Positions 21,105 through 37,467 of a stretch of DNA of 64,000 nt are shown piece by piece. A model generated the notes under the pieces. It saw only the letters and a program-made list of their open reading frames with translations. It did not search any database and was not told the DNA's origin. Location of the stretch: positions 249 through 64,248 of the forward strand of contig JAUSHX010000028.1 in NCBI GenBank assembly GCA_030648265.1. Reading direction: 5' to 3'. The first letter of the stretch is position 1; every line of letters starts with the position of its first letter. This DNA is from a bacterium (GTDB lineage: Bacteria; Patescibacteriota; Minisyncoccia; Phycocordibacterales; UBA2100). The position numbers and the translations under genes were made by a program.

Positions 21105-21179
21105 AGCGGGGTGGAGCAGTAGTAGCTCGCAAGGCTCATAACCTTGAGGTCGCAGGTGCAATTCCTGTCCCCGCAACCA
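21105..21179 (+). tRNA. tRNA-Met(CAU), initiator-like (A1·A72 mismatch), CCA encoded
   Basis: AGCGGGGTGGAGCAG…GGCTCATAACC…TTCCTGTCCCCGCAACCA; close to E. coli tRNA-fMet. Confidence 0.8.
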
Positions 21180-21187
21180 CGTAAAAC

Positions 21188-21213
21188 GAAAACCCCGCCA
21201 TTGGCGGGGTTTT
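21188..21213 (+). terminator. rho-independent terminator hairpin aaaaccccgccattggcggggtttt
   Basis: GC stem followed by a T-tract, immediately after the tRNA. Confidence 0.7.
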
Positions 21214-21327
21214 CGTCACGTGGCTTGCGCCAGCAGGACATGTGTGAGCGAAGCGATTTACGTGGTTGAGCCGCGTGGTGAACGGAGTGAGCTTTACGCG
21301 GCAACTTATTCACGTAAGAATGTGTAC

Positions 21328-21591
21328 ATGTACCATGTTTACCTTTTAGAAAACCAAGACGACAAAAGTTGGTATATCGGCTACAGCGCCAATCTCAAAC
21401 AACGAATCGAGCGGCATCAAAAGGGTGATGGCGCTCGCACAACAAGTAGAAAGGAAAACTGGGATTTGATTTACTATGAAGCCTACAAAAACGAACAAGA
21501 TGCAAAAGGACGCGAGCGCTTCCTTAAAAGCGGGTCTGGCAGAAAGTTCCTAAAAAAACAGCTCGCACACTATTTGGTTAGTGAATTGTGA
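21328..21591 (+). CDS. free-standing GIY-YIG nuclease family protein (UPF0213/YhbQ-like, 87 aa)
   Basis: MYHVYLL…WYIGYSANLKQRIERHQKG…NWDLIYYEAY…RERFLK; the same family as the domain embedded in the pseudopilin at 13492. Confidence 0.75.
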   Translation: MYHVYLLENQDDKSWYIGYSANLKQRIERHQKGDGARTTSRKENWDLIYYEAYKNEQDAKGRERFLKSGSGRKFLKKQLAHYLVSEL

Positions 21592-21799
21592 CGCCATTTC
21601 CTGCCCCTGCAACACGGTTGTGACGCCAGGGAACCACATTCCCACAGGCGTCGAAAGTGCAAGAAGTCGGTACGGTACCGACTCCCATGGTCGGCTATAA
21701 AAGCGCATGAAACCACGCGAGTGGTTTTTGCGCATGCAATGTTCTCAACGTATTTTTGGTGCAATTCCAATTCTCGTGCAAATCAGTGATGTGTGTTGA

Positions 21800-21880
21800 A
21801 ATCGTGAAAATAGGCGTATTTCCTAAGTAATTCACGATTATGCTTGACTAAATCGTGAAAATCAATATACTTTAGCGGAC
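21800..21880 (+). promoter_or_regulatory. sigma70-like promoter (TTGACT-16-TATACT) embedded in palindromic operator-like repeats aaatcgtgaaaat / aattcacgatt / aaatcgtgaaaat upstream of fic
   Basis: Direct reading; inverted half-sites AATCGTGAA/TTCACGATT overlap the -35 and the spacer. Confidence 0.55.
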
Positions 21881-21898
21881 ACAGAGAACAAATCGTAT

Positions 21899-22771
21899 AT
21901 GACAAAGACTCCTCAAACACTCAGCCAGATTAAATTGCTCCGCGAGCGCTACTATAAGGCGCTGCCGGGCAAAGAGTTGCTCATCAAGATTATCAATGAG
22001 TCGGAAATTCCCGAGCACGTTTATAATTCAAACGCTATAGAAAATAGCACGCTCACCCTAGAGGAGACCGAAAAAATTCTCCTCCAGATTGATCTTGGCC
22101 GATATGTAAACGAGCGGGAAATTTTTGAAGCGAGGAATCTCGCGCGCGTTGTTGAATATATAGAAACGAAAGCAAAAGAAGCCGAGCTCTCTTTGTCCGG
22201 CATATGCCTGCTTCATAAAATGCTTATTGCCAATATCCGCGACGATGTCGCCGGCAGGTTCCGTCAGACTGGCGAGTGGGTGCGCGTCGGCGCACACATG
22301 GGAGCAGACCCGAAAGACATTGAGCATCTTCTGACAAAAATGCTCACGACATACCACGCAAGCTCGCACGAGCATATTGTGAAGCGCATTGCCTGTCTTC
22401 ATCTCGCCATTGAACACATTCATCCATTTGTTGACGGCAACGGGCGAATCGGCCGCGTCATTAACAACTATGCACTCATTAGGGAGGGGTACGTGCCGAT
22501 TAATATCGCGTTCGTGAATCGCGCCCGCTATTATGATGCGTTCAAAGAGTCTGATGCGAGCGGCGCAACCTCGATTATGGAAGAGGTCGTTGGCCGTGCG
22601 CTTGCCACGAGCTACCACAAGCGCTTGGCATATCTTGAAGGCAAACACATCATCACTCTTGCCGAGTATGGCAAACAAAAAAAACTTTCTCACTCAAATC
22701 TCATTAACAAAGCTCACCGCCAGACCATCCCTGCCTTTCTTGAGAAAGGTGTATGGAAAATCGGAGTGTAG
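21899..22771 (+). CDS. fic: Fic family protein (AMPylase/filamentation induced by cAMP)
   Basis: Fic motif HPFVDGNGRIGR. Confidence 0.9.
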   Translation: MTKTPQTLSQIKLLRERYYKALPGKELLIKIINESEIPEHVYNSNAIENSTLTLEETEKILLQIDLGRYVNEREIFEARNLARVVEYIETKAKEAELSLSGICLLHKMLIANIRDDVAGRFRQTGEWVRVGAHMGADPKDIEHLLTKMLTTYHASSHEHIVKRIACLHLAIEHIHPFVDGNGRIGRVINNYALIREGYVPINIAFVNRARYYDAFKESDASGATSIMEEVVGRALATSYHKRLAYLEGKHIITLAEYGKQKKLSHSNLINKAHRQTIPAFLEKGVWKIGV

Positions 22772-23014
22772 TATTCGTGTAGTAAATACCCTCATAAACC
22801 CTTGCGTTCATCATATAAGCTTGTAGTTAGCTGTTAATCTACAAGCACAAGGAATGACGCAACCCCCGCTGTGAGCCCCGAGGCGAGCAGAGCGAGCTTT
22901 TCGGGGTGAGTCCAGACCTGTTCCGACGCCCCTAGTTGATAAGAAAATCCTTTAAAATAGAGCACGTAATATCGGCAGTATCAAAAAATTAAGATTTGTG
23001 GGATGATTTGATTG

Positions 23015-23677
23015 ATGAAGATTAAAGCACTTCCTGCGCACGAGAGGCCGCGAGAAAAACTCATGGAGAAAGGTGCGGAGAATCTGACCGATGTTGAGTT
23101 ACTCGCAATTCTTTTGCGCACTGGTCGCGCAGGAAAGAGCGCGCTTGATATTGCGGAAAGTATTCTCACAAAGTACTCAAAGAAAAGAATATTAGATATT
23201 ACGTTAGCCGACCTTAGAGCGATCAAAGGCATTGATGCGGGCAAGGCATGCACCTTGCTTGCGGCATTTGAGTTCACAAAACGTGCGACGGGCGCGCATA
23301 AAAATGGAAGGCCAATTATACAAAGCACTGAAGACGCACTGGCACAACTGCATGATGTTCGCTCGCATAAAAAAGAGCATTTCGTTGCGCTTTACTTAAA
23401 TGCTCGCAACGAGCTTGTGCATCGCGAAGATATTTCAGTTGGAACAGTAAACGCAAGCATCGTACATCCGCGCGATGTATTTGCCCCTGCGCTTGAGCAT
23501 AATGCTACGGTCGTCATAGTCGCTCACAATCACCCCTCCGGCAGTCCTGACCCATCGCCAGAAGATTACGATGTTACTGCTCGCCTTAAAGACGCGGGGA
23601 AGCTTATCGGGGTCCAGCTTCTCTACCACCTTATCCTCACCAAAGACGGTCATGCGACGATTCATCAGAACCCGTAA
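23015..23677 (+). CDS. radC: RadC-like JAB/MPN domain protein (UPF0758)
   Basis: HNHPSGSPDPSPED JAMM-like motif and N-terminal HhH. Confidence 0.85.
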   Translation: MKIKALPAHERPREKLMEKGAENLTDVELLAILLRTGRAGKSALDIAESILTKYSKKRILDITLADLRAIKGIDAGKACTLLAAFEFTKRATGAHKNGRPIIQSTEDALAQLHDVRSHKKEHFVALYLNARNELVHREDISVGTVNASIVHPRDVFAPALEHNATVVIVAHNHPSGSPDPSPEDYDVTARLKDAGKLIGVQLLYHLILTKDGHATIHQNP

Positions 23678-23880
23678 TGCTAACTTTGTTTAGTTTCACT
23701 CCTCGAATGTGAAAAAACTAGGCTAGTTTGTTTAATGAGAAGCCCGCAATTATCACCCACTCAATTACTTAAGAATTGGTTAAATATCACTTAAGTTTAA
23801 GTAATCTGCATATTTGGGCTAGGAATTTCCACATGCAGTATTGACAAGTATTTCACATATGATACACTATTGTCATAGTT

Positions 23881-24501
23881 ATGAAAAGCGCTAAGAATCT
23901 ACTCGAGCAGCTCAAATCCTTGCCTTATTTCACCAAGGAGTCTGTTTTGCAGCTTAGCAGACCGTACGGCCTTGCAAAAACAACGGTTGACACATACATC
24001 AGCCGCTCCATGAAGCGCAAAGACATCCTTTCGCTAAGGAGGGGGCTATATGTATCTGCCGACTTTTACAACAAGAACAAGAGTGACACCTCGTATCTTT
24101 TCTTCCTTGCAAATGTTATCCGCAAGCCTTCCTATGTAAGTTCGTGGGCGGCGTTGCAGTACTATGGTCTTGCGACGGAAGCAATCCACACCATTACGTC
24201 CGTTACTTCCAAGGTGACGCGTACATACGTTACAAAGGCAGGCAACTTTGTCTACTCGTCGATAAAGGACGAACTATTTTCTGATTCAGTCTTGATAAAA
24301 GGAAAGTTCGACTTCTTTATCGCCACTCCGGCAAAGGCTTTGTTTGACCTGTTGTATGCTAAGACTCGTCAGTTTCAGGGAGTTGCGTTCGAGCATATTC
24401 CAAGACTCGTCGAAGAGCTACGCATCGATATTGATGAAATGGACAAATCAGAAAGAGAGAAATTTTATATGATGGTAAAGAAATATACGCACCATGGATA
24501 A
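23881..24501 (+). CDS. AbiEi-like antitoxin/transcriptional regulator (type IV TA/abortive infection)
   Basis: N-terminal wHTH similar to the AbiEi N-terminal domain; overlaps the downstream nucleotidyltransferase; strong TTGACA-17-TACACT promoter at 23841–23869. Confidence 0.55.
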   Translation: MKSAKNLLEQLKSLPYFTKESVLQLSRPYGLAKTTVDTYISRSMKRKDILSLRRGLYVSADFYNKNKSDTSYLFFLANVIRKPSYVSSWAALQYYGLATEAIHTITSVTSKVTRTYVTKAGNFVYSSIKDELFSDSVLIKGKFDFFIATPAKALFDLLYAKTRQFQGVAFEHIPRLVEELRIDIDEMDKSEREKFYMMVKKYTHHG

Positions 24502-25780
24502 TCAGATTCTCAGCGTGCTTAAGCAGAGACTCCAGGAAGTTGTCGCGTTGGGCGTTGCCGATGCCGAAACACAGCGCAATGCACTGAAAGAGGAGCTTCA
24601 GTACTATGTACTCGATTTTATCTATCACCACCAGGAATACAAAAGATGGGTGATGTACGGCGGTTCCGCGTTGCGTATTTGTCACGGCTTGGACCGAATG
24701 TCTGTCGACCTTGACTTCGAGGTTGAACATCCCATTACTGATGCATTTCTCACAGACCTACAGAATGAAATCGGAGAGCATTTTTCAAGCGCTTACAATG
24801 TTGGTTCGGAATCGTTGACGGTAAAAACCAATCATGGCCGTGGACTAACGCTCCGCTTTATCATCGGCGACGAACTGGGGTTTGGCCACACATCCAATCA
24901 GGTACATGTGAAGATAGACCTCAATAATTTCATGGCCCCCAAGACGGTTATCGAGCGCCGGCCAATCAACCACAACCAGCTTTCATTCGTTATCGTGACC
25001 TACAATATGTCAGCGCTCATGGCGAGCAAGATTGCCGCCATATTCTTGTGCGGTCGGCGGGGTATCGGAGAAGCGGTGTATGAAGAGAAAGGCAGAGACA
25101 TCTACGATTTACTCTGGTACATGGGCAAGAAGACTGTGCCTGACCTTGATTATCTGAACGCAAAGAAAGTTGAAGAAGCTAAAGACATCCGCACGCTTTT
25201 CACTAAGCTCACGATACAGATGAACAAAGTGAACAATGAAAATCTGAAGCAGGATCTCACGCCGCTTTTCACCAACCAGGGATTCATCACTCACTGGCTT
25301 GAAAACTGGCGCGAGAGTTTTTTCCACTTCATGGATGCTTATAAGATTCGTACCGTAACAAAGCTTGAAGGTGTGCGGGTGTTTGAGGATTTCAACTCCG
25401 ACGTATTTTCATTTGTGTACGCATACTCCACGGCAGAGGGAGATTCGGTGCGGGTTGCGTACCTCATCAGTGACTACTGGATGGACTTCAAGGACGGCGA
25501 TATCCCGACGGTCATAGATAACTTTGTAGACGAGCATATCGAATTTGCCGCAAATGGCGTATCAAGTCGACCCGCATCACAGAAAAAGCTCAAACAGTAC
25601 GCAACTATGTTTTATGCTAAAACCGAAGCGTATTTCAAAAAGACCGGACGCATCATGATAGGCGATACTATCGCGACAAAGCTCATCCGCATGACTGCCG
25701 ATAAACTGAACCAGAAAGAGCAGATTGTGCTCAACAAATCCGCCTTGTTGTCATGCGAGCTTGACGACCTGCTAAGATAG
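24494..25780 (+). CDS. AbiEii/AbiGii-family nucleotidyltransferase toxin with a long C-terminal extension (428 aa)
   Basis: YGGSALRICHGLDRMSVDLDFEV (GS…DxD NTase motif); the C-terminal ~130 aa are beyond the usual ~300-aa family length. Confidence 0.6.
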   Translation: MDNQILSVLKQRLQEVVALGVADAETQRNALKEELQYYVLDFIYHHQEYKRWVMYGGSALRICHGLDRMSVDLDFEVEHPITDAFLTDLQNEIGEHFSSAYNVGSESLTVKTNHGRGLTLRFIIGDELGFGHTSNQVHVKIDLNNFMAPKTVIERRPINHNQLSFVIVTYNMSALMASKIAAIFLCGRRGIGEAVYEEKGRDIYDLLWYMGKKTVPDLDYLNAKKVEEAKDIRTLFTKLTIQMNKVNNENLKQDLTPLFTNQGFITHWLENWRESFFHFMDAYKIRTVTKLEGVRVFEDFNSDVFSFVYAYSTAEGDSVRVAYLISDYWMDFKDGDIPTVIDNFVDEHIEFAANGVSSRPASQKKLKQYATMFYAKTEAYFKKTGRIMIGDTIATKLIRMTADKLNQKEQIVLNKSALLSCELDDLLR

Positions 25781-25868
25781 AAGGTATGCGCTACACACTT
25801 TTTGAACAACTGAAGAAGGTCTTGGAAAAGGACGAGCGATTGGTGGCCGAGGGGGAATTAAATCGAGC

Positions 25869-26005
25869 GACATTCTCACATTCTTGAGAATGTGAGAATG
25901 TCGTGGGAGGGGGAGAATCTATTCTAGTATTTTGCAAAATACTAGAATAGATTGGGAAGGGCGACGGGGCGGGTCATTTCAATGTTTTGCAAAACATTAG
26001 AATGA
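25869..26005. repeat. three long perfect or near-perfect palindromes (34, 38, 32 bp), each followed by a G-rich tract
   Basis: gacattctcacattcttgagaatgtgagaatgtc; aatctattctagtattttgcaaaatactagaatagatt; tcatttcaatgttttgcaaaacattagaatga. A related palindrome at 61853 acts as a terminator. Confidence 0.85.
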
Positions 26006-26049
26006 CGGGGGATAGAAAATAACGGGGGGGAGGGATAGGGAAAAAGGAA

Positions 26050-26420
26050 CATTATTACGCTTAATAATCGTTTGACACCTGTTTCTGTGCCTGTTGCCCG
26101 ACTACGCTGGAGCTCCGCTGGACCGTCTACAGGTGCCTATCATGACCGATAGGCCTGCGATTTGTATCCACGCTACGCGCGGACAAATCGGGAGCCTGAC
26201 ACCTGGTGTTTGTTTACGTCGAAACGGTACCGTCTACAGGCGAATTAACAAATTCGTGGCTCGGCCATAAACTTTGCTGACCGATAGACTCCATTTCGAC
26301 GCGATCTTTACTGGCGACGTAGAGCGAGTGTGATGCGGAAGCGCAGCTTCCGCATCACCGAGCCGAGGAGTCAGAAACCGTCAGCCGGTTTTCGCTTAAT
26401 AATCGCCTACCACCTGCTTC
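26050..26420. other. ~370-nt ORF-free, GC-rich, highly self-complementary region bounded by direct repeats (cgcttaataatcg at 26057 and 26396); candidate structured ncRNA or att/ori-like region
   Basis: Multiple hairpins (gatgcggaagcgcagcttccgcatc; cctatcatgaccgatagg; cacctg…caggtg); no ORF >60 aa on either strand across 25809–26478. Confidence 0.35.
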
Positions 26421-26478
26421 TTTTGAGGAGTACAATGAGCCCTAACGTTTTTGAGTACTGAATTTATAAACGCAGAAT

Positions 26479-27072
26479 ATGAATCAAATTGTCTACATCT
26501 TAATAAATGAGTCTATGCCTGAATTTGTGAAGATAGGCTTTACTCATGGTGATGTAAACGAAAGAATCAGGCAGTTAGATCGGACAGGCGTACCTCTTCC
26601 GTTTGAAGTTTACTACGCTGCAACAGTGGAAGACGCAGAAAAAGAAGAAAAATGGTTGCATTCTATTTTTGCTGATCGTCGGGCACGGGATAGCCGAGAA
26701 TTTTTCAAGATGAATCCTGAATATGCGGCGCTTGCATTAAAACGAGTAGAAATTAGAGAAACTAAGATTTATAGCGTACTGACCCCAGAACAGGAAAAGG
26801 AAGTCGATCAAGTAAAAGAAAGACGCTCAAGATTTCATTTCGCACAGTACGGAATTCCAGTCGGATCTAAACTTACTTTTACGAGAGATTCGGATATTGT
26901 TGCCGAAGTAGTAGAAAACGACAAAATAAAGATTGGAGACAAGGTTGATTTTCTATCAAATGTGGCCCGTGATTTATTGGGATACAGGCGAAGACCTCAA
27001 GGCACTTTGTATTTTGAATTTGAGGGCGAGATCTTAGATGATAGACGCAGAAGAATGGAGGAAGAAGATTAG
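26479..27072 (+). CDS. T5orf172 (GIY-YIG-like) domain protein with DUF4357-like C-terminus
   Basis: IVYILINESMPEFVKIGFT…ERIRQL…EFFKMNPEYA matches the T5orf172 signature. Confidence 0.7.
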   Translation: MNQIVYILINESMPEFVKIGFTHGDVNERIRQLDRTGVPLPFEVYYAATVEDAEKEEKWLHSIFADRRARDSREFFKMNPEYAALALKRVEIRETKIYSVLTPEQEKEVDQVKERRSRFHFAQYGIPVGSKLTFTRDSDIVAEVVENDKIKIGDKVDFLSNVARDLLGYRRRPQGTLYFEFEGEILDDRRRRMEEED

Positions 27073-27173
27073 ACAGGAGGCGGCGGCGCGGCAGGTTTCC
27101 CGGAAATGAGGATTTGTGGGATGATGTTCTGGCGATGGTAAACAATGGACTGGATGTTGCAACAAGGATTCAG

Positions 27174-28013
27174 TTATCTGTAATAATTCAGTAGGACTTC
27201 GAGGGTCAGGTCTACGCCTCTTGTGCGGAGTTCTTTAATTACTTTTCCAGTGTAAAGCTTTTTAAGCATTTCACTTTTTGACGCATCTTCCGCATTGTGT
27301 ATTTTTCTGTGACAATTTGGACATAAAGGCACAATGTTTACTGGAACATCAATACTGTGCGGGAAGTCTTCCTGATTAGAGATGGGTATTATATGATGCA
27401 TTTCAACGTATTGCCCCTCGAGTGTGGGGCTAAAAAAGGTCTTGTGCGATGGATCATAAGTACAGAGGTTGCCAGATAAAATAAGTGCGAGTTTAGCTAT
27501 CCTTGGGTTGCCCCGATACCCAGTAGATGAATTTTTTGTCTGTTTTCTAGGCTTTGCGATTGGTCCCTCCGGCAATGGTTCAATCGGATCCGCGATGCGC
27601 ACTGCAGTCTGGAACATCTCATCAGTTGTGTCTATGACGGACTCCCCCCTTTCTATTGCGGAGATGATTCGCTGAGCCTCCTCAATGGTGACTGTGTCTG
27701 ACGCTGCAAGACCGGAGAGGTCTTTCAGCCTGTATTCGTGACCAGTGCCGTTAGGAGATTCGAATACACGATGTGCCAATCTGCCATCCCCCTGGTTAAG
27801 CTCACTCCGATATTGCGCTGTCCAGTTACTGCCGTGATGAAACTCGTGCCTCCAAAGTTCTGAAAAGGGGTTGGATCTGAAATTCTCGATAGGTAAGTAT
27901 TTCCCAGGTTTTGCGATGGACAATGCCGAAAGAATTATTGCAAATGAGAGGCGGGTGCTATCTTTATATTGGAAAACCTCGGCTAACTCACTGGCGGTCA
28001 TTTCAGAAATCAT
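27174..28013 (-). CDS. HNH endonuclease (candidate restriction endonuclease), divergent from the methyltransferase fusion
   Basis: C-terminal HNH motif EMHHIIPIS…NIVPLCPNCHRKIHN; the ORF track starts at TTG 28055, the first ATG is 28013. Confidence 0.65.
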   Translation of the reverse strand: MISEMTASELAEVFQYKDSTRLSFAIILSALSIAKPGKYLPIENFRSNPFSELWRHEFHHGSNWTAQYRSELNQGDGRLAHRVFESPNGTGHEYRLKDLSGLAASDTVTIEEAQRIISAIERGESVIDTTDEMFQTAVRIADPIEPLPEGPIAKPRKQTKNSSTGYRGNPRIAKLALILSGNLCTYDPSHKTFFSPTLEGQYVEMHHIIPISNQEDFPHSIDVPVNIVPLCPNCHRKIHNAEDASKSEMLKKLYTGKVIKELRTRGVDLTLEVLLNYYR

Positions 28014-28130
28014 AGCTGTATAGTTATACACATCCGAAAATAAGTAAAGCACCAATCTTAGTGCATAATATGCATGTTACTGCTCGTATTGGTTGATTAA
28101 TTTACCACCTACACTCAATTGGTCGAATTC

Positions 28131-31031
28131 ATGGTCTATATATCAACGAAAAAAGCCTCAGATATTTTGGGAGTATCTCCAACAACCATGAGACGATATG
28201 CGGATGCTGGGAGTTTGCCCGTTGTTCGCTTGTCGCAATCGAGGCACCGCCGTTTTGCCGTATCTGACGTTAGTAAGTTGTTGACGGACCTTTCAGTAAG
28301 AGGCGATGAGAATGGGTTCCACAAGAAGAATAGTCCATCTTTCGCCAAACCGCATCCTTCTCACTATCTATTACATAAATATTGGGGCAGAAAGGCCCAT
28401 AATATTGTCGAGAACTATGTTAAGCGATACACCCGAAAAGGAGATGTGGTACTTGATCCGTTCATGGGGAGTGGCGTTGTATTAATTGAATCGGCGAAAG
28501 CACATCGTAAGGCTATTGGAATCGACATTAACCCTTTGTCGAAGTTCATTGTTGACGGTACTACGCAGAAAGTTAACCCCGAGGAACTCGCCGAGGTCTT
28601 TGGAAACATTCTGTCTCAGTTGGAGGCAGCATTTGAATACTACAATATGACAAAATGTTTGCACTGTAGACTCGATTCAACCATAGAAACTACGGTATGG
28701 AATGAGACGGAGCCAGCAGTCATCAGATTCCGCTGCCCCGTTCACGGCGTCGGTGTTAAAGTCCCGTCCCAAAGTGATAAGAGGGTTATTAGAGAGGCAC
28801 GCACTCTGTTTGAAGATCTTGAGGCGGCACACGAATTACAATACCCCAAGGATGAGATTTTAAAATATGTAAAAAGAAGTGGAGTATCGACTATAGATGC
28901 GCTCTTTACATCCCGGGCGTTAGTGCAGTTGTCCCACCTGCTTATCCTAATAGAAAAAGTGGAAGTCCAGTCTGTCCGCGACACTTTAAAATTAATATTT
29001 AGTTCAATGTTACCGAACGTCTCGAAGATGATACCTGGCGATATTGAAAAAGGAACGTATAAGTCTGGTTGGGTCATCAGCAAATTTTGGGTTCCCAAAA
29101 TACATACGGAACGCTCCGTGTTGCATTGCTTGAAACTCCGATTCCAATCTGTTTTCAAAGGGAAAAAAGAGTTAAAAGATTTAGACGAGAGCTTAATTCA
29201 ATCGCACATAGCAGATAGTAAGAAACTGGCTCTCGATGATAATTCAGTCGATTATATTTTTACTGACCCGCCTTATGGAGAGAGTATTGCATACCTCGCC
29301 TTGAGTCATTTTTACAATGCCTGGTTTAAAATGCTACCTGAATATTCTAATGAGATTATTATCGATCCATATAGAAAGATTTCGAAAGAAGATTTTGCAA
29401 GAAATATCCAAAAATGTTTTGGAGAGATGTATAGGGTTCTTAAACCAAATAGGTTTCTATCCTTCACCTTTCACAATAGGAATTTGGATGTGTGGAAGAC
29501 TATCCTAGAGGCATGCCTAAAGTCGGGATTTACACTTAAGGACATTGTCTTTCAGCCACAGGCAGTTTCGTCGGGAACACAGGGTATCAACAGAAAGAAT
29601 ACCTTATACGGGGATTTCATCTATACATTTCAAAAACCTAAGAAAAAGAAGATTCATGAGGGGTTCAAATACTTCGATAACGCCTACGGTTTTCTGGTTA
29701 ATACAATAAATTCTCTATTAGTATCAAAAGGGCAGGTTTCTACGGCTGAATTGTATGAGCATATAATACCTATTATTGTGAAGAATCACGCATATCTGGA
29801 TAAGGATGGGAAAATTATCGATTTGGAGACATTGATCAGTAATAATTTTGAGTATAAGAAGACAGAGAAAGGTGATCGGTGGCGTGCCCTTTCCAGAGTT
29901 GCCAACACATCACGTTTCACGGTCGTGGACTTATTTGCGGGGGCGGGCGGTTTTTCTGAGGGATTTAAACACGCGGGGTTTGACATTGCTGTTGCGGTTG
30001 AAAATGACTCACGTCATAGCGAAACGTATGTGCACAATCACCCAAATACTAGATTGATAGTGGACGGAGTTGAAAACATCTCAACATCAAAGAGGCGGGG
30101 GAGGTTCTCAATTTCAGAGTTTCTAAGGGAGAATCATAAATCTTGCAACATCATCATTGGAGGTCCTCCATGTCAGGGATTCAGCATGGCAGGTTCGCGA
30201 ATTAGAAGAAAAAGAAGATTCTTATCGGATAGACGAAATACCCTGTTTCTTGAATACGTAAATTTGGTTGAAGATTTAAATCCAGAAGTATTTATACTGG
30301 AAAATGTACCGGGAATACTCAACTATGATAACGGAGCCGTAAAAGAAGAGATCATATCGAAATTCGCAGAGCTTGGATATGATGTGCATGCTGAAATCTT
30401 AGACGCAAGTAAGTATGGTATTCCTCAATCTAGAAAGCGGGCTTTTTTCATTGGGAACAGATTGGGCATTCCGTCGAAAACTCTATTTCCGAATTCACAA
30501 TGTGATAACGAAACTGTGTCAGTATGGGATGCGATTAGTGACCTTCCTCAAATTATGAGCGGTGAAGGAGGTCAGGTTATAAAAAACAATATGATGGTAC
30601 CTCAGTCACATTATCAGCAAATAATGCGATTGGAAAACGAGGACTGTATTTTCAATCATGAAGCGCCAACGCATAGTCAGGCCACTCTAGATGTTATGAA
30701 ACTCATAAAACCAGGTAAGGGATTGAAGGATCTACCTAAGGAATTTCACACAAGATCGGTTCATAGTGGTGCATATGGTCGAATGGAAAAGGATAGGCCA
30801 GCGTTCACCTTAACGACTCGTCTAAACACTCCATCGGTTGGAAGAATTACGCACCCAGTACTGCATAGAACGATCACGCCTCGAGAGGCTGCCAGGTTAC
30901 AGAGTTTCTCTGATTCGTATCGATTCTTCGGTGACGTGACAACTCAGGGAATTCAAATTGGCAACGCAGTACCTCCACTCCTGGCTGAATTAATTGCCAA
31001 AGAGATTATGAAAAAAGCTTTTGATCGGTAG
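28131..31031 (+). CDS. fusion protein: MerR/excisionase-like HTH + amino (N4/N6) DNA methyltransferase + C5-cytosine DNA methyltransferase
   Basis: HTH (ASDILGVSPTTMRRYAD); amino-MTase motif I VLDPFMGSGVV and motif IV IFTDPPYG; C5-MTase motifs FAGAGGFSEGF (I), GGPPCQGFS (IV), ENV (VI), QSRKRAFFIG (VIII), GNAV (X). Confidence 0.8.
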   Translation: MVYISTKKASDILGVSPTTMRRYADAGSLPVVRLSQSRHRRFAVSDVSKLLTDLSVRGDENGFHKKNSPSFAKPHPSHYLLHKYWGRKAHNIVENYVKRYTRKGDVVLDPFMGSGVVLIESAKAHRKAIGIDINPLSKFIVDGTTQKVNPEELAEVFGNILSQLEAAFEYYNMTKCLHCRLDSTIETTVWNETEPAVIRFRCPVHGVGVKVPSQSDKRVIREARTLFEDLEAAHELQYPKDEILKYVKRSGVSTIDALFTSRALVQLSHLLILIEKVEVQSVRDTLKLIFSSMLPNVSKMIPGDIEKGTYKSGWVISKFWVPKIHTERSVLHCLKLRFQSVFKGKKELKDLDESLIQSHIADSKKLALDDNSVDYIFTDPPYGESIAYLALSHFYNAWFKMLPEYSNEIIIDPYRKISKEDFARNIQKCFGEMYRVLKPNRFLSFTFHNRNLDVWKTILEACLKSGFTLKDIVFQPQAVSSGTQGINRKNTLYGDFIYTFQKPKKKKIHEGFKYFDNAYGFLVNTINSLLVSKGQVSTAELYEHIIPIIVKNHAYLDKDGKIIDLETLISNNFEYKKTEKGDRWRALSRVANTSRFTVVDLFAGAGGFSEGFKHAGFDIAVAVENDSRHSETYVHNHPNTRLIVDGVENISTSKRRGRFSISEFLRENHKSCNIIIGGPPCQGFSMAGSRIRRKRRFLSDRRNTLFLEYVNLVEDLNPEVFILENVPGILNYDNGAVKEEIISKFAELGYDVHAEILDASKYGIPQSRKRAFFIGNRLGIPSKTLFPNSQCDNETVSVWDAISDLPQIMSGEGGQVIKNNMMVPQSHYQQIMRLENEDCIFNHEAPTHSQATLDVMKLIKPGKGLKDLPKEFHTRSVHSGAYGRMEKDRPAFTLTTRLNTPSVGRITHPVLHRTITPREAARLQSFSDSYRFFGDVTTQGIQIGNAVPPLLAELIAKEIMKKAFDR

Positions 31032-31401
31032 TATGGGGAATAGGGTGTCAGGTGCCATTTTTGCGTTAGAATTGGAACATGCCCGACGAAACCCAGGCCC
31101 CTGCGACCGAGCCAGAAACACTGAATGAGCCAGTGGCTAGTAGCCAGCAGCCCGTAGCAATACCAGAAACAGACGTATCAAGTCCTGCGGGCGATATTTC
31201 AAGCACCGAAACCCCGCCTGCGCCCCAAAACGGCCCTGGGGACATCGCGACCCCGGTTCCTGTTAAAGATGCAAATTCGGAGCCGAATTTGGCTGAGAGC
31301 AGTGGCGAAAATACGGAAAAACAGCCTGAAATCGGAGCCGCGGGAGCGGCCGCTACTGCGGTTGCTCCCGCGGCTTCATCCCCCTCGTTTATCGGCGATT
31401 T

Positions 31402-32310
31402 TTGAAAGATAACGGTCTCGCTGTTGGCCAACCAGGAAGATTTGAATTAACAAAAGCGGGCGTGTTGTTGTTTGGTAAAAATCCTTCCATTGCACTTAAA
31501 AATAAGTGTGGAATTAAAATCTCTCATTATTATGGAACAAAACCGAGCCATACCGGAAAACCAAATTTCGTTACTCGTCCGTTTACGGTTGAAGGGCCTT
31601 TGTTGAAGCAGATTGAGCAGGCAATTGAGTACTTCAGGAATATTGTAAAGAATTCGCCACCAAAACTTAGCGGTGCGTCTTTTAACCCTACTTTTTTGGT
31701 TCCGGAATGGGCATTCCAAGAAGCCATAACAAATGCGGTTATCCACAGAAACTATTTTGTCCAAGACGATATACAAGTCAGGTTTTTTGACGATCGCGTT
31801 GAAATCGAAAGCCCCGGAACATATCCAGGCCATATTACTGTTGAAAATATCAGGACCGAACGGTTTGCGAGAAATCCGCTGATTTTGCGAACTCTCAATC
31901 GTTTTCAAATTGCCCCTAACTTGGATATTGGCGAGGGCGTAGATCGCATGTTTAAAGTTATGAAAGAGCAAAACCTGTATGAACCACTTTTCTTTCCGCC
32001 CACGATACGTCCCAATTCTGTTTTATTGTTTTTGCTTAATATTCAGAAAGTTGAGTATTGGGACACTGTCGGTAAGTATTTAGATAAAAATTATCGCATC
32101 TCTAACAAAAGAGCGCGCGAGATAACCAGTGTGCAAGATATTTTGAAAATGTCTCGACTGTTACATAATTGGGTTGAAAAAGGATTATTGGAGAAAATGG
32201 GCAAAGCCAAGAAGGACTGCTATTACCGTAAACCAGGACAGGAAATCCCCAAGGGTTTATTTTCAATGGGGGGTGATAATAAAACCGGCAAAGGGAATTT
32301 ACACCCTTAA
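31402..32310 (+). pseudogene. N-terminally truncated Schlafen/AlbA_2–HATPase_c_4 family protein (divergent AAA, RecG-C-like) fragment; TTG start only
   Basis: Retains …LTKAGVLLFGKNP… (end of the AlbA_2 domain) and the HATPase_c_4-like region; no ATG; preceded by a low-complexity Pro/Ala/Thr ORF in another frame. Confidence 0.45.
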
Positions 32311-32364
32311 AATAGGCATATTTTGGTAGGCCTTATTCTCACAGACACATTAAAGGAAGAAATT

Positions 32365-34158
32365 ATGTCAACGCCGCAATCTGAAAATTCATATATTGCC
32401 AATGAAATCTTGCCTCTCTTGGCAAGTGGTTTTGGCTATCCGATTCACGATTCTGTCAGGGTAAAAATCAACGATGTCCCGATTTTCCGGCCGAGTGGTG
32501 GTCGAGCAGGCACTATGGATATTGTCTACTATCACAATGGTGAGCCAGTACTACTCGTAGAAGCTAAGAGAAAACACAAATCGCATGATGCGGCATTGCA
32601 AGAGGCCCTTAAATATTTACTTAATTTTCCCGTTAAACGTGAAGAGTTCGCTCCATCCGGCATACCCCCGAAATTTTTGGCAACAACTGTCGGCAAAGAA
32701 ATAAAGTTTTATAAATGGTCGTACGATTATTCTCATCAGATACCGGATTTTTTGACAGAAGAAGTTGAGATTCTGTCGTTTAATAGACTTCTTGAGTATT
32801 ACGGTTTAAACGAAAAGTATCAGGCACGTATTTTGGATGTGAGAGGATTTAAGACAGATTTTTTTGACGAATTAGTAGCAATTTTTAAAACAGATGCGAA
32901 GGAGGAAAGAATCACCGCAGATATTATCAAGAAGGTTTCACTGCAGATTCTTAATTTTTTGGCTTATGGAGATAAGTTTGCCGGTCAGCTGCCCTATACC
33001 GGTTTGTCTATACAGGGACAAAAGGCAGTGCGTGACTTGTTTGACCGCTTTAATCTAACATCCTCGCTTGGACCGGAAGCCGCCAGAGAGTTCCGCAGAG
33101 CAATTCTACGCTCCTTTCAGGGTGGCGGATTTAACCAGTATCTTACAGAACAGTGCGTGATTGCTTTCATGGTCGGTCTAGTAGGGGGTTTTAGACCGGA
33201 AACCACGGTGCTTGATTTCGAGTGCGGAAGCGGTGGATTCTTAGCAGCCGCTGTTGAGCTTGGCGTCGGTTTGGAAAATATACGCGGCATAGATATCGAG
33301 GAATTACCTTGTATTGTTGCCAAGACCTATTTAGCTCTATATTTCAAGAAAACGGGTGAATGGATTGATGCTCTACCAGTGAAAAAAGATAACGGCCTGC
33401 TCGACCAAGGGAGTAATTGGGATGTTGTAATCGGCAATCCAGCTGGTGGGAATAAATACGAGCACGGAGGTTTAGTAAAAATTGGAAGTCACCTTGACCG
33501 AGACTTGGATAGAAACGGTCGGCTGGACGACAATCTTTCCGAGTATAACCTTTCCATTCAGCAGGCCGTGATGAGTACAAAGATTGGCGGAAAAATCTGC
33601 CTGATTTTGCCGGAAGGATTTTTTTCGAACTCACAGGATGAGTTTCTGCGCAAATTTGTGGCCAAGCATTGTAAAGTGTTGGCGATTGTTAGTCTGCCGC
33701 GCGGTGTCTTCAAGAAAGGGACCTCAACGCGTCGACTAAGGGGTGGTGCGCAAACCGCCTCTATGAAAATGTCTATTTTTTGTGCAGAGAAAGTGAAAGA
33801 GATTGATAAGGAAGATCTGATTGGCACCGACGATTCTTCTACCGTGAGTTATCCAGTATTTCTTGTGAGCGTAAACGAACCAACATCAACAAGCGGGTCG
33901 GTTTGTGACTGGCTTGAACCGCGCCTCGTTGCCGTATTAGAGCAGTGGGAAGTATGGCGCAGCAGCGAGCATCTTGAAGCAAAGCCGATTACCAAAATCG
34001 CCGCATTAGTAAGTGAAAAGAGAAAGAAACATTTGCCCGCCGTGCCGTTACCTTTCGCACAAAGTCCAGATGCCGATACCAAGTCGGCGCGCAAACGAGC
34101 ACAGCCGAAGACGCAGACCAAGGTCAACAAAGATTTGGACGATATTTTCTCGCAATAA
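32365..34158 (+). CDS. PD-(D/E)xK nuclease domain (HsdR-N-like) fused to an N6-adenine DNA methyltransferase (Type IIG/IIL-like R-M candidate)
   Basis: MDIVYYHNGEPVLLVEAKRK (D…EAK); MTase motif I LDFECGSGGFL and motif IV VVIGNPAGG; SD GGAAG before ATG 32365. Confidence 0.6.
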   Translation: MSTPQSENSYIANEILPLLASGFGYPIHDSVRVKINDVPIFRPSGGRAGTMDIVYYHNGEPVLLVEAKRKHKSHDAALQEALKYLLNFPVKREEFAPSGIPPKFLATTVGKEIKFYKWSYDYSHQIPDFLTEEVEILSFNRLLEYYGLNEKYQARILDVRGFKTDFFDELVAIFKTDAKEERITADIIKKVSLQILNFLAYGDKFAGQLPYTGLSIQGQKAVRDLFDRFNLTSSLGPEAAREFRRAILRSFQGGGFNQYLTEQCVIAFMVGLVGGFRPETTVLDFECGSGGFLAAAVELGVGLENIRGIDIEELPCIVAKTYLALYFKKTGEWIDALPVKKDNGLLDQGSNWDVVIGNPAGGNKYEHGGLVKIGSHLDRDLDRNGRLDDNLSEYNLSIQQAVMSTKIGGKICLILPEGFFSNSQDEFLRKFVAKHCKVLAIVSLPRGVFKKGTSTRRLRGGAQTASMKMSIFCAEKVKEIDKEDLIGTDDSSTVSYPVFLVSVNEPTSTSGSVCDWLEPRLVAVLEQWEVWRSSEHLEAKPITKIAALVSEKRKKHLPAVPLPFAQSPDADTKSARKRAQPKTQTKVNKDLDDIFSQ

Positions 34159-34672
34159 ATTGCAGGTACTGTCATGGACGAGGAACTCTTCGAACTCGCA
34201 AAAGATAACGACCTAACGCTTGATGAGGCCCAGGAGGTTCAGGATTTGGCTGATGAGACGGGTCTGGATCTCAACGAAGCATTGGAAATTTGGCAGGCAC
34301 AATAATAGCAGCCCTGAAACCAGCTGTTGGTAACTCGCTTCGCAACTCGCTAATACTAAGCTAGGGTGCTCAACGATAGCCAAAAGTGCTATCATGTTCT
34401 GTACACCACCAATATCGGCTCGAAAGAGCGTCGACCTAAACTATTCGCAAGAGTGGCATGGTCGAGAAGACCCAATCACGATACTGAACCCGCCTGTTTG
34501 GGCTGTCCCCACTTCTTGCGAATTTCATCTTGACCATGTATACTGCTACGCATAAACACCTTGTCGTAGCTTCGGTTACGGTAAGTCAACGAAAGGGGGC
34601 TTAGGCCCCCTTTTGTTATGTATGGTATTCTTGAATCCATGGTATTCTGAACTTCAGATTCACACTTTCTAT

Positions 34673-35173
34673 ATGGCAACGAAAATAAACCAAGCAAAGT
34701 ATCGCAACGCCATCCTGTTTTTTGCGAGTAGGATTCAAAATGGCACGCTCGGCAAGTTGAAGCTAATGAAGCTTCTCTACTATTTCGATTTCGATTTCTT
34801 CGAGAAATATGGGCGCTCGGTTACAGGTGATAAATACCTACGTTTCGAGAATGGTCCCGTGCCACGTATGGCAGAGAAGATTATAAAGCAGATGGATGGC
34901 AAAGAAATCAAGATTTCGAGGCGAAAGGTAGCTGATGGCTATAAAGACCAGATGCATATAGAAGCTCTTGTGGCCTTTGATATTAGTGTTTTCGAAAAAG
35001 AAGAAATCCTTCTTCTCGAGGAACTTGCGTCCAAATGGGAACGCTTTAGCGGTGCCGAAATGAAAAGTGCGACTCATGGTGAAGCACCATGGATTGCCAC
35101 CGAAGCGAATGGCGTCATCGATTACAATCTCGCCTATTATCGAGACACATACGGCGAAATGGCAAAGGTCTAG
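34673..35173 (+). CDS. Panacea/DUF4065 (SocA-like) domain antitoxin candidate
   Basis: GKLKLMKLLYYFDFDFF…TGDKYLRFENGPVP is a typical DUF4065 signature. Confidence 0.65.
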   Translation: MATKINQAKYRNAILFFASRIQNGTLGKLKLMKLLYYFDFDFFEKYGRSVTGDKYLRFENGPVPRMAEKIIKQMDGKEIKISRRKVADGYKDQMHIEALVAFDISVFEKEEILLLEELASKWERFSGAEMKSATHGEAPWIATEANGVIDYNLAYYRDTYGEMAKV

Positions 35174-35184
35174 CGGAGAACCTC

Positions 35185-35523
35185 ATGGATCTTTGTCGTC
35201 ACGAAGATATCGAGAAAGATTTTCATGCGCTGAAACGCTTTGCTGCGCCACAAGCTTCACTTGAAGCGTGGGAGCGACTCTTTTCACTCAAAGGTCTCAA
35301 AGAAACACCGGGAATTGATGCGTTTCCTGGTTTTGGGGGTGCGAAGATATATAAAGGTCGCGTGGTTCCTCTCAAAGAGAATGTTGGTAAGTCAAAGGGT
35401 TACCGGGTGATTTTTGAATTGCAGGAAGAACAGCGCTATCGCATCGTAGTTTTCTCACGACATGGGATTTATCATGACGAACAAGATTTGATAAATCTTG
35501 TCAGGATCAGACTCAAGCGTTGA
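35185..35523 (+). CDS. RelE/ParE-superfamily toxin candidate (112 aa)
   Basis: C-terminal KGYRVIFEL…YRIVVFSRHGIYHD pattern; 12 nt downstream of the Panacea gene; SD GGAG. Confidence 0.5.
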   Translation: MDLCRHEDIEKDFHALKRFAAPQASLEAWERLFSLKGLKETPGIDAFPGFGGAKIYKGRVVPLKENVGKSKGYRVIFELQEEQRYRIVVFSRHGIYHDEQDLINLVRIRLKR

Positions 35524-35690
35524 TTTCCGGTACGGTACCGCTCGGCCTCTTCGGCCTTCGAAATGCGCCGAAAGTCGTCGAATACTCTTTGAACTGACCC
35601 ATACCGACAGGCATCGCTCGGGCGTACTATAGAGAGGTGAAAGAACCTTTGGTTTGCTTACTGGGTGGGGTAGGGTACCGCCAAGGGCAA

Positions 35691-35721
35691 CAGAAAAACC
35701 GCCCGTATGGCGGTTTTTCTG
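35691..35721. terminator. terminator-like hairpin cagaaaaaccgcccgtatggcggtttttctg
   Basis: Perfect stem with T/A tracts on both sides; lies between the island and ilvD. Confidence 0.6.
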
Positions 35722-35772
35722 TTGGAGGATTGAACTTATTATCCAACGCGGGTATACTTCCACCACGTATAT

Positions 35773-37467
35773 ATGGCCAAGTCTGTTAATCTAAAGCCCC
35801 GCAGTTCGGTGATGACGGAAGGTGATGGGCGCGCTCCAAATCGTGCCATGCTTCGCGCGACCGGATTTACCGATGCGGATTTCAAGAAGCCGATAATCGG
35901 CATAGCGAGCACGTGGAGCGAGGTGACGCCGTGCAACATGCATATCAACAAGCTTGCCGAGCACGTGCACGCGGGTTGCCGCACGGCCGGCCTCGTCCCA
36001 CAGACATTCGGCACAATCACCGTAAGCGACGGCATCTCAATGGGACATGAGGGCATGAAATATTCTCTGGTGAGCAGGGAAGTCATCGCCGACTCCATAG
36101 AAGTTGTCGCCGGAGCGGAGAGATTTGACGGCCTTATAACAATCGGCGGGTGCGATAAGAATATGCCCGGCTGTATGATGGCGATTTCGCGCGTGAACAC
36201 GCCGAGTATTTTTATCTACGGCGGCACAATTATGCCAGGCAAGTTGCACGGCAAAAACATTGACATCGTGAGTATTTTTGAAGCGGTGGGGCAATTTCAG
36301 GCAAACAAAATTAGTGCGAAAGAACTGAAGGCAGTTGAGTGCAATGCGTGTCCGGGTCCCGGTTCATGCGGTGGCATGTACACGGCCAACACAATGTCTG
36401 CCGCGATAGAAGCGATTGGAATGTCACTCCCGTATGGCGCGACGACTCCGGCAATCAGCAAGCAAAAAGCCGACGAGTGCGAAGTGGCAGGTCGTCAAAT
36501 AAAAAATTTGTTGAAGCTCCGACTGCGCCCGAGCGATATCATGACTCGGAGCGCATTTCTGAATGCGATTACGGTCGTTATGGCTGTGGGCGGCTCCACC
36601 AATGCAGTGCTCCATCTTCTCGCTATGGCAAAGGCGGCGAATGTAAATTTGACGATGAAAGATTTCAACACGATTTCCGACCGCACGCCTTTACTTGTGG
36701 ATATGAAACCGGGCGGTAAATATGTGACGGTGAATTTGCATAACGCGGGAGGAATTCCCGGAGTTATGAAAGAGCTTTTGGATGCCGGGCTTCTGAACGG
36801 CGATTGCATGACAATAACAGGGCGTACTGTCGCGGAGAATTTGAAAGGCGTGAAAAGAAAGAACTCGCTCCATCCTGTCATTCACACGGTTAAATCTCCG
36901 GTGAAGAGTCGCGGGCAAATCGTCATCCTCCATGGAAATCTTGCGCCCGAGGGCGGTGTTGCGAAGATTAAGGGCATCAAATCTCTGAAGCACAAAGGGC
37001 CTGCAAAGGTCTTTGAAGACGAGGAAGAGGTTTTCACCGCGCTCAAAAAAGGTTCAATAGTCGCGGGCGACACTATCGTCATCCGCAACGAAGGCCCCAA
37101 GGGAGGCCCAGGTATGCGGGAAATGCTTTCAGTAACCTCGGCTATCATAGGACAAGGGCTCGGCGATTCCGTGGCACTTATAACGGATGGACGATTTTCA
37201 GGAGGCACATACGGATTGGTTGTGGGACACGTTGCACCGGAGGCGTACGTGGGCGGCCCCATAGCGCTCGTCAAGAATGGCGATATCATTACGCTTGATG
37301 TGGAAAAAAAGACGATGTCTGTTGCTGTTTCGGATGCCGAATTCAAGCGCAGGCGAGGCGTATGGAAACAGCCGAAGCCCAGATACAAGAGCGGGGTGTT
37401 GCGAAAATACATAGAGTTGGTTTCATCGGCGAGCCAAGGCGCAGTAACAGATAATTTTGATTTATGA
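35773..37467 (+). CDS. ilvD: dihydroxy-acid dehydratase
   Basis: ILVD/EDD family; CDKN…PGC and SGGT motifs; 564 aa. Confidence 0.95.

Follow-up and report, generated by a model that had tools for sequence, protein, structure and literature searches.

In a 64,000-nucleotide stretch of DNA from a bacterium of the phylum Patescibacteriota (contig JAUSHX010000028.1, positions 249 to 64,248; hereafter, the window), a gene for a small HNH endonuclease (R) is divergently oriented relative to a gene for a long protein (M) in which a domain of the helix-turn-helix (HTH) type, an amino-methyltransferase (amino-MTase) and a C5-cytosine methyltransferase (C5-MTase) are joined in one chain. Do these two genes comprise a restriction-modification (R-M) system and, if so, what would be the roles of two chemically different methylases in it? 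The original prediction, made from the sequence alone, proposed such a system. The analysis described here leads us to conclude that R and M are very probably a functional R-M pair. The more inclusive reading, under which the cassette is an intact, mobile two-gene R-M unit in the Type IIS/IIA style, with strand-specific methylation, cleavage by R and control by the HTH, is the one that we favor, albeit with more reserve.

Both open reading frames (ORFs) lie where they had been predicted. In the longest forms, R extends over 27174-28055 of the minus strand (293 amino acids (aa) from a TTG codon) and M over 28119-31031 (970 aa, also from a TTG codon), and the E-values and ORF lengths of both are far beyond chance. 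The likely product of M, however, starts at the ATG at 28131 and thus consists of 966 rather than 970 aa, being identical to the database protein P0001, which is annotated as 'MAG: DNA (cytosine-5-)-methyltransferase [bacterium]'. The likely start of R is the ATG at 28013, which yields a 279-aa protein identical to P0121 ('HNH endonuclease signature motif containing protein'), with an N-terminus that aligns with those of 17 homologues. The distance between the two genes, predicted at 60-100 bp, is accordingly approximate: the longest ORFs are separated by 63 bp, and the two ATG codons by 117 bp (28014-28130).

A domain scan against Pfam and NCBIfam recovered all four of the expected domains, that is, the HTH, the amino-MTase and the C5-MTase of M and the HNH domain of R (the principal E-values are listed in the table below). 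The N-terminal domain of M is a MerR/excisionase-like HTH, as predicted, with the HTH_17 match covering residues 7-56 of the 970-aa form and an additional match to the excisionase family. The N6_N4_Mtase profile matches the next part of the protein in two pieces, with the C-terminal, FxGxG-containing part of the profile coming first; FMGSG (residues 111-115 of the 966-aa form, the numbering used hereafter) precedes DPPYG (379-383) by approximately 265 residues, in agreement with the alpha motif order inferred from the sequence. This module also shows a full-length match to the PADLOC MTase_II model (E 1.7e-52). Between the two motifs, the target-recognition region holds a zinc-ribbon-like element, CLHC...CPVHG (residues 176-206), in which C176, C179 and C202 are invariant in 25 homologues. 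The C5-MTase is complete: positions 1-324 of the 324 positions of the PF00145 profile are covered in a single stretch (residues 600-965), and the five motifs named in the prediction are all present in the canonical order, namely, I (FxGxGG; FAGAGG, 602-607), IV (PCQ; PPCQ, 679-682), VI (ENV, 724-726), VIII (QxRxR; QSRKR, 766-770) and X (GNxV; GNAV, 944-947). The relatives of this module in the PDB include DNMT1, M.HaeIII and M.HhaI.

A search of 5.8 billion proteins for homologues of M listed 120 matches, among which are approximately 40 full-length fused proteins with 46-68% identity to M, a few shorter fused forms with identity down to 43%, and dozens of proteins of about 606 aa that consist of the HTH and the amino-MTase. 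The fused homologues with organism names come from Omnitrophota, Bacteroidota, Bacillota and Gammaproteobacteria, and the fusion is found also in two isolate genomes, one of which is a complete chromosome. Because the approximately 40 full-length fused proteins come from independent assemblies, the fusion is genuine rather than the product of an assembly frameshift. In an alignment of 25 fused homologues, the catalytic motifs of both methylases are invariant or nearly so, which is what one sees in M itself, so the protein is not a single functional methylase with an inactivated companion; both halves are under selection. What did not hold is the notion that fusions of two chemically different methyltransferases are uncommon: fusions of a C5-MTase with an amino-MTase have been described for HpyAV and ten homologues as well as for Alw26I, Esp3I, BsmBI and BsmAI (PMC2816704, PMC5944983). 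We could not, however, find a description of a regulator and two different methylases combined in one chain.

The AlphaFold2 model of R is a confident one and consists of two domains, an N-terminal domain (hereafter, N-domain) and the HNH domain, connected by a linker. The HNH nuclease predicted from the CPNCH motif was readily confirmed: the motif itself occupies residues 231-235, and the other key residues of the domain are C184/H190, E204, the histidine pair H206-H207, D222, N226 and H239, with the catalytic and zinc residues invariant in 18 homologues. The domain is of the McrA type, with EcoKMcrA (6ghc) as the closest solved structure (phmmer E 2e-7, Foldseek E 2e-5), and a Foldseek comparison of the full R model with the PDB retrieved McrA-type HNH domains only. 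The N-domain has a highly conserved core, W64..QYRSELNQG..RLAHRVFES, and an exhaustive HMMER scan of 1.84 billion representative sequences detected it in only 25 clusters. The proteins in these clusters have just two architectures, with the N-domain joined either to an HNH domain (approximately 280 aa) or to a McrB-like AAA+ module (approximately 520-575 aa); matches of odd length turned out to be N-terminally truncated AAA+ proteins. In the McrB-like ATPase of Clostridium nigeriense, the N-domain homologue (46% identity, E 1e-33) is an insert within the AAA+ module. The search of the PDB with a model of the N-domain alone (predicted local distance difference test (pLDDT) score of 85) gave no significant Foldseek match, the best E-value being 0.05; nearly all entries in the resulting list (E 0.05-1, none significant) are winged-helix proteins, namely, IscR, forkhead, PadR/MarR, ORC, the winged-helix domains of MukE/F, and histone H1.

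We then compared the gene neighborhoods of the homologues in 38 genome loci, together with loci around individual homologues and one annotated plasmid, by tblastn, ORF clustering and Pfam. The methylase pair adjoins the HNH homologue in all nine loci that have one, although the flanking genes are unrelated, including a UvrD helicase, an integrase together with type IV secretion genes, DNA polymerase I, and genes for tRNA modification and tRNA synthetases. Such invariable linkage amid wholly different flanks is characteristic of an R-M module that is self-contained and mobile, and it supports the predicted R-M system. Furthermore, in a comparison of 16 loci, N-domain and amino-MTase divergence were correlated (Mantel r 0.72, a value that none of 2000 permutations reached). 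Thus, the nuclease gene is both adjacent to and inherited with the methyltransferase gene, as expected of a Type II system.

The methylase pair occurs with restriction partners of three types. In Type A, which includes the window and seven other loci (L001, L039, L041, L042, L043, L046 and L047), an HNH protein of approximately 280 aa is encoded divergently from the fused M gene, and these cassettes contain no other nuclease gene. In Type B, the partners are a McrB-like AAA_5 protein and a McrC-like protein with DUF2357 and PD-(D/E)XK domains, encoded divergently from M in all loci except one, with M fused in some loci and split in others; the hosts are Clostridium, Alkaliphilus, Acetivibrio, Litorilituus, Streptococcus, Pseudolactococcus, Aestuariibaculum, Peribacillus and a Thiospirochaeta plasmid. 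Isolate genomes with relatives of the system include those of Aestuariibaculum lutulentum (CP136709), Peribacillus sp. ACCC06369 and Clostridium nigeriense. In one Type B locus, that of Aestuariibaculum lutulentum (L044:1-2709), a second, canonical McrB/McrC pair lies directly beside the methylase-linked, McrBC-like pair. In Type C, represented in Patescibacteria, Pelagibacteraceae, SAR86 and SAR116 (L009-L027; for example, L011:3495-10013), a ResIII helicase of approximately 820-880 aa is encoded upstream and often a 450-aa NOV_C (DUF3883-like) protein downstream of a methylase that lacks the HTH, with all genes co-directional; we did not find this operon architecture described. Finally, in a hybrid locus (L048:1-5897), genes for a ResIII helicase, the amino-MTase, the C5-MTase and an HNH/N-domain protein are all co-directional, and the HNH protein sits in the slot that NOV_C holds in the Type C operons. 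A profile-profile comparison of NOV_C with the R N-domain revealed no shared domain (hhalign probability 0.2%).

Across these partner types, the two methylases behave as what appears to be an obligate pair. Wherever the amino-MTase is at least 40% identical, which is the case in 26 distinct genome loci, the C5-MTase comes next, either fused in-frame or as the product of a separate gene that often overlaps; the C5-MTase was seen in 25 of these loci, and in the remaining one, L023, the contig ends at the amino-MTase. It could be argued that the two modules have different, unrelated specificities, with only one of them cognate to the nuclease. Multi-domain methylases with separate specificities are well established, and the original prediction had named the protection of two specificities as one of its options. 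However, some lineages should have lost or replaced a non-cognate passenger, whereas the two modules are found together, as a fusion or side by side, in all of these loci and with each of the three nuclease partners, and the divergence of the amino-MTase closely tracks that of the C5-MTase (r 0.91). A methylase of dual, unrelated specificity therefore seems unlikely.

The place of R among nucleases calls for similar scrutiny, given that the closest relatives of its HNH domain are EcoKMcrA and ScoMcrA, that its sole PADLOC match is to mREase_IV (E 9e-8), and that the partner genes in its relatives are McrBC-like, a family that is usually Type IV. All this would fit a Type IV, modification-dependent nuclease of the McrA kind that lies beside an independent, possibly orphan, fused methyltransferase. 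Indeed, EcoKMcrA resembles R in combining an N-terminal reader with a C-terminal HNH domain in a protein of similar size, but it recognizes methylated DNA and has no linked methylase, whereas R always adjoins the methylase pair. The sequence similarity between R and McrA is limited to the generic HNH module (residues 137-255) and does not extend to the N-terminal reader domain, the N-domain of R being without a McrA match. The linkage to the methylases in nine of nine loci, the co-divergence with them and the lack of any other nuclease gene in the HNH-type cassettes all speak for a partnership, and a nuclease that attacks the marks made by its own neighbor would be lethal. Furthermore, the LlaJI system demonstrates that McrBC-type machinery can read unmodified sites (PMC1459862). 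Hence, a Type IV nuclease next to an unrelated methylase is, in our view, distinctly unlikely.

LlaJI is of interest here also as a precedent for the Type B loci. It combines two methyltransferases with a McrBC-like nuclease that reads an unmodified asymmetric site (PMC1459862, PMC12707154), and the Type B relatives from Clostridia, Bacteroidota and Bacillota and on the Thiospirochaeta plasmid share its layout of two methylases, a McrB-like specificity subunit of the AAA+ class and a McrC-like PD-(D/E)XK nuclease (PMC1459862). The differences are that both methylases of LlaJI are C5 enzymes and its specificity domain is N-terminal and B3-like (PMC12707154), whereas the candidate specificity domain of the Type B relatives is a different one, inserted within the AAA+ module; in R, the candidate specificity domain is joined to the HNH domain, with no motor. 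A census of McrBC systems has independently reported that inserted 'likely specificity domains' are frequent in McrB GTPase domains and that methylase-associated McrB clades are still undescribed (PMC11090510). We read the N-domain as a putative target-recognition module that matches the methylase pair, with the HNH domain or McrBC serving as interchangeable cleavage engines. Conceivably, although we suggest this only tentatively, the N-domain is an undescribed, methylation-sensitive, sequence-specific reader that has been plugged both into a minimal HNH nuclease and into AAA+ McrBC-like motors, with the pair of N6-methyladenine (m6A) and 5-methylcytosine (m5C) methylases retained in both. We could not find a description of a domain common to such HNH and McrB-like partners.

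What, then, would two methylases contribute? From the obligatory pairing of an amino-MTase with a C5-MTase, along with the known precedents (PMC2816704, PMC4081073), we infer that the cassette likely recognizes a single asymmetric site, of which each module methylates one strand. The amino-MTase, which probably makes m6A judging by its DPPY motif, would mark one strand of the target, and the C5 module would mark a cytosine on the opposite strand; with one mark per strand, both daughter duplexes would be protected after replication. This is the standard explanation for such fusions, and the original prediction, which spoke of double protection of one site, had stated it only by half. R would bind the unmethylated target via its N-terminal, winged-helix-like domain of approximately 130 residues, and its single C-terminal HNH site would cut, probably at or near the target. 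The modular organization of R, in which recognition and cleavage reside in separate domains and the N-domain occurs also without HNH in McrB-like proteins, is that of Type IIS/IIA enzymes.

Each single feature of the cassette has a described precedent, in HpyAV/Hin4II, Alw26I/Esp3I, SsoII/Ecl18kI or LlaJI. The closest functional analogue is HpyAV/Hin4II (CCTTC 6/5), which, like the cassette, employs an HNH Type IIS nuclease with the catalytic motif near the C-terminus (PMC2816704). In HpyAV, the C5 and N6-adenine methylases are fused into an 823-aa protein and in Hin4II they are encoded by two genes, with each module serving one strand of the asymmetric site (PMC2816704); the same alternation of fused and split methylases recurs in the family of M. 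Nevertheless, M does not belong with M.HpyAV, in which the C5 module precedes the N6-adenine module, the order in M being HTH, amino-MTase and C5-MTase; moreover, HpyAV lacks the HTH, has M and R genes of the same orientation and encodes an R protein of approximately 420 aa. The 25 N-domain clusters, with their two architectures, include none that is HpyAV-like in length, and no homology between the R proteins was detected, a separation from HpyAV drawn from this comparison rather than from a direct sequence alignment. Another group to be considered consists of the Type IIS systems with an m5C methyltransferase, Alw26I, Esp3I, Eco31I, BsaI, BsmBI and BsmAI, in which the C5 modules are circularly permuted, with motifs IX-X placed before motifs I-VIII (PMC5944983). 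Membership of M in the Alw26I/Esp3I/Eco31I/BsaI group was rejected, the C5 module of M being colinear with PF00145. In that group, according to work attributed to Bitinaite (1992 and 2002) and Jakubauskas (2007), the m5C methylase is reportedly paired or fused with an m6A methylase, one for each strand of the asymmetric site, and the nucleases are said to be HNH enzymes. The nucleases of the Alw26I group are about twice as long as R.

These precedents bear also on the possibility that both modules methylate the same palindromic site, with redundant protection and with R as a dimeric, Type IIP-like HNH enzyme. HNH enzymes of Type IIP do exist, for example, KpnI, Hpy99I and PacI (PMC4081073), but one methylase suffices for a palindrome, and the strict conservation of a chemically different pair would be hard to explain. 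Besides, separate recognition and cleavage domains, such as those of R, are a Type IIS design (PMC12707154), and the described systems with a pair of C5 and N6-adenine methylases all read asymmetric sites (PMC2816704, PMC5944983). Recognition of a palindrome is thus highly improbable.

In the favored Type IIS/IIA scheme, the remaining component, the HTH, would control expression, and here the relevant analogues appear to be SsoII and Ecl18kI. In SsoII, Ecl18kI and EcoRII, the N-terminal HTH of the C5 methylase binds an operator between the divergent R and M genes, excluding RNA polymerase from the M promoter (PMC2760811, PMC3978073, PMC12707154). These are single-methylase systems of Type IIP/IIE, with the HTH fused directly to the C5 module, whereas in M an HTH of the HTH_17/MerR/excisionase type precedes the amino-MTase and is only a candidate for operator binding. 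The distribution of the HTH fits this role: profile searches detected it in 8/8 Type A loci and 10/11 Type B loci but in none of the 18 Type C loci, nor in L048, so that it is present in 18 of the 19 HNH- and McrBC-type loci, in which, with one exception, R and M are divergent, versus 0/19 of the co-directional, helicase-type loci.

The spacer harbors a plausible target. A 27-nucleotide (nt) block matches its consensus at 20-25 positions in seven of the eight Type A spacers, although the proteins encoded in these loci are only 45-68% identical; in the five loci for which the distance was determined, its end lies 27-30 nt ahead of the M start, and its 17-nt core has a single zero-mismatch occurrence in the window. 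The 3' end of the block reads as a -35 hexamer, TTGACA followed by 17 nt and CATAAT in L001, TTGACA followed by 17 nt and TATATT in L042, and TTGATT in the window, a placement that would imply a near-leaderless M transcript. A sigma-70 consensus scan found no promoter in the window's own spacer. The HTH of M would bind the spacer, with this block as the candidate site, and exclude RNA polymerase from the M promoter in the manner of Ecl18kI and SsoII, repressing M once methylase suffices and thereby setting the M:R balance. The predicted role of the HTH as a built-in controller is thus indirectly supported by its tracking of the HNH- and McrBC-type loci, by the conserved block upstream of M and by the SsoII/Ecl18kI precedent, and we consider autoregulation of M reasonably probable. 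Two palindromes in the spacer, TGCATAATATGCA (28062-28074) and TGTATAGTTATACA (28017-28030), are not conserved beyond the closest relatives. The second of these, 14 nt long, lies directly 5' to the start codon of R and has a similar counterpart in L046 and a partly similar one in L039; a terminator-like hairpin followed by a T-run is present on the minus strand in the R leader (28049-28064); either the TGTATAGTTATACA palindrome or this hairpin could be a second control element, acting on R. The hexamer GTTACT, considered as a family-wide operator or recognition site, was dropped, as its occurrence in 7 spacers fell below the null maximum of 12.

Several observations weigh against the scheme outlined above. 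The winged-helix assignment of the N-domain falls short of statistical significance, DPPY does not strictly exclude N4-cytosine methylation, and the closest solved relatives of the HNH domain are the modification-dependent enzymes already mentioned, with the PADLOC label of a Type IV enzyme based on that domain alone. Closely related Clostridium loci contribute part of the Mantel signal. As for regulation, an unbiased k-mer enumeration over the 17 R/M spacers of HTH-bearing loci yielded no motif above the shuffled null; because the counts over all these loci stayed within the null, the conserved block is confined to the HNH type and may be no more than a promoter.

The cassette is located within a low-GC island of approximately 14.6 kb (window positions 21180-35770; GC fraction of 0.41-0.46 versus approximately 0.50), which is bounded by a tRNA-Met gene (21105-21179) and ilvD (35773-37467) and in which we found neither an integrase nor an att-like repeat of the tRNA-Met gene. 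Residence in an island of mixed defense genes might suggest a decaying or silent remnant that has lost restriction, but neither ORF is truncated, both can be aligned with their homologues over the entire length, and all catalytic residues are intact, so this explanation is the most improbable of those considered. Two of the neighboring genes downstream of the cassette, those for the HATPase_c_4 protein and the 611-aa methylase (see the table), could form a second, separate modification or defense module. No island neighbor recurs beside the HNH/fusion cassette in other loci. The island also contains two intergenic direct repeats, a 22-nt repeat, AAATKARGATTTGTGGGATGAT, with 91% identity between the copies (22986-23007 and 27104-27125), and a 32-nt repeat with 81% identity (26055-26086 and 26390-26421).

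Table. Features of the R-M cassette and neighboring genes of the island (coordinates in the window)
Feature	Coordinates	Strand	Evidence
R gene, candidate restriction endonuclease, 279 aa	27174..28013 (stop codon included)	-	ORF; identity to P0121; 17 full-length homologues at 40-63% identity; AlphaFold2 mean pLDDT 90
R layout: putative N-terminal recognition domain, linker, C-terminal HNH		-	AlphaFold2 model
N-domain of R, putative sequence recognition, residues 1-130	27624..28013	-	No Pfam family; invariant core 27756-27815
HNH (beta-beta-alpha-Me) nuclease domain, residues 170-254	27252..27506	-	Pfam HNH (PF01844) E 7e-8
Putative divergent R/M regulatory spacer, 117 bp	28014..28130	.	Sequence; cross-locus comparison
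Conserved block ATGTTACTGCTCGTATTGGTTGATTAA, candidate HTH operator over -35-like hexamer of M promoter	28074..28100	+	Conservation in Type A spacers; putative function
M gene, HTH + amino-MTase + C5-MTase fusion, 966 aa	28131..31031 (stop codon included)	+	ORF; Pfam/NCBIfam; motifs; homologues
HTH_17 / MerR / excisionase-like DNA-binding domain	28137..28286	+	Pfam HTH_17 E 8e-9; TIGR01764 E 7e-5
Alpha-order N6/N4 amino-methyltransferase	28371..29885	+	PF01555 E 1.4e-22; PADLOC PDLC03319
Amino-MTase motif I, FMGSG	28461-28475	+	Exact location
Amino-MTase zinc-ribbon-like CLHC...CPVHG	28656-28748	+	Exact location
Amino-MTase motif IV, DPPYG	29265-29279	+	Exact location
Colinear C5-cytosine methyltransferase	29910..31016	+	PF00145 E 2e-67; TIGR00675 E 2e-59
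C5 motif FAGAGG	29934-29951	+	Exact location
C5 motif PPCQ	30165-30176	+	Exact location
C5 motif ENV	30300-30308	+	Exact location
C5 motif QSRKR	30426-30440	+	Exact location
C5 motif GNAV	30960-30971	+	Exact location
Fic/SoFic-like gene	21899-22771		
RadC	23012-23677		
AbiEi/AbiEii	23881-25780		
T5orf172/PDC-S57	26479-27072		
HATPase_c_4 protein	31402-32310	+	Weak matches to pAgo and Aga defense-protein models
611-aa protein, HSDR_N-like N-terminal region and gamma-type N6 adenine methylase	32323-34158	+	Eco57I/N6_Mtase; weak mad2/MADS2 match
SocA/Panacea antitoxin-like gene	34613-35173		

A practical corollary concerns annotation, where caution is due: pipelines label R either as a Type IV enzyme or generically as an 'HNH endonuclease', and recognize in M only a 'cytosine-5 methyltransferase'. 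If the proposed scheme is correct, a single 966-aa chain performs regulation and both strand-specific methylations, and its partner is a compact, 279-aa Type IIS nuclease with a portable recognition domain, a possible reagent or fusion scaffold. Should the N-domain indeed be the reader, R would rank with the smallest Type IIS enzymes of modular design and might have a new specificity. The cassette family would also bear on the undescribed methylase-associated McrB clades with inserted specificity domains (PMC11090510). Within this family, a fixed core of specificity and modification would have been recombined with HNH, McrBC-like or helicase-based engines, which would amount to a natural experiment in the exchange of restriction engines.

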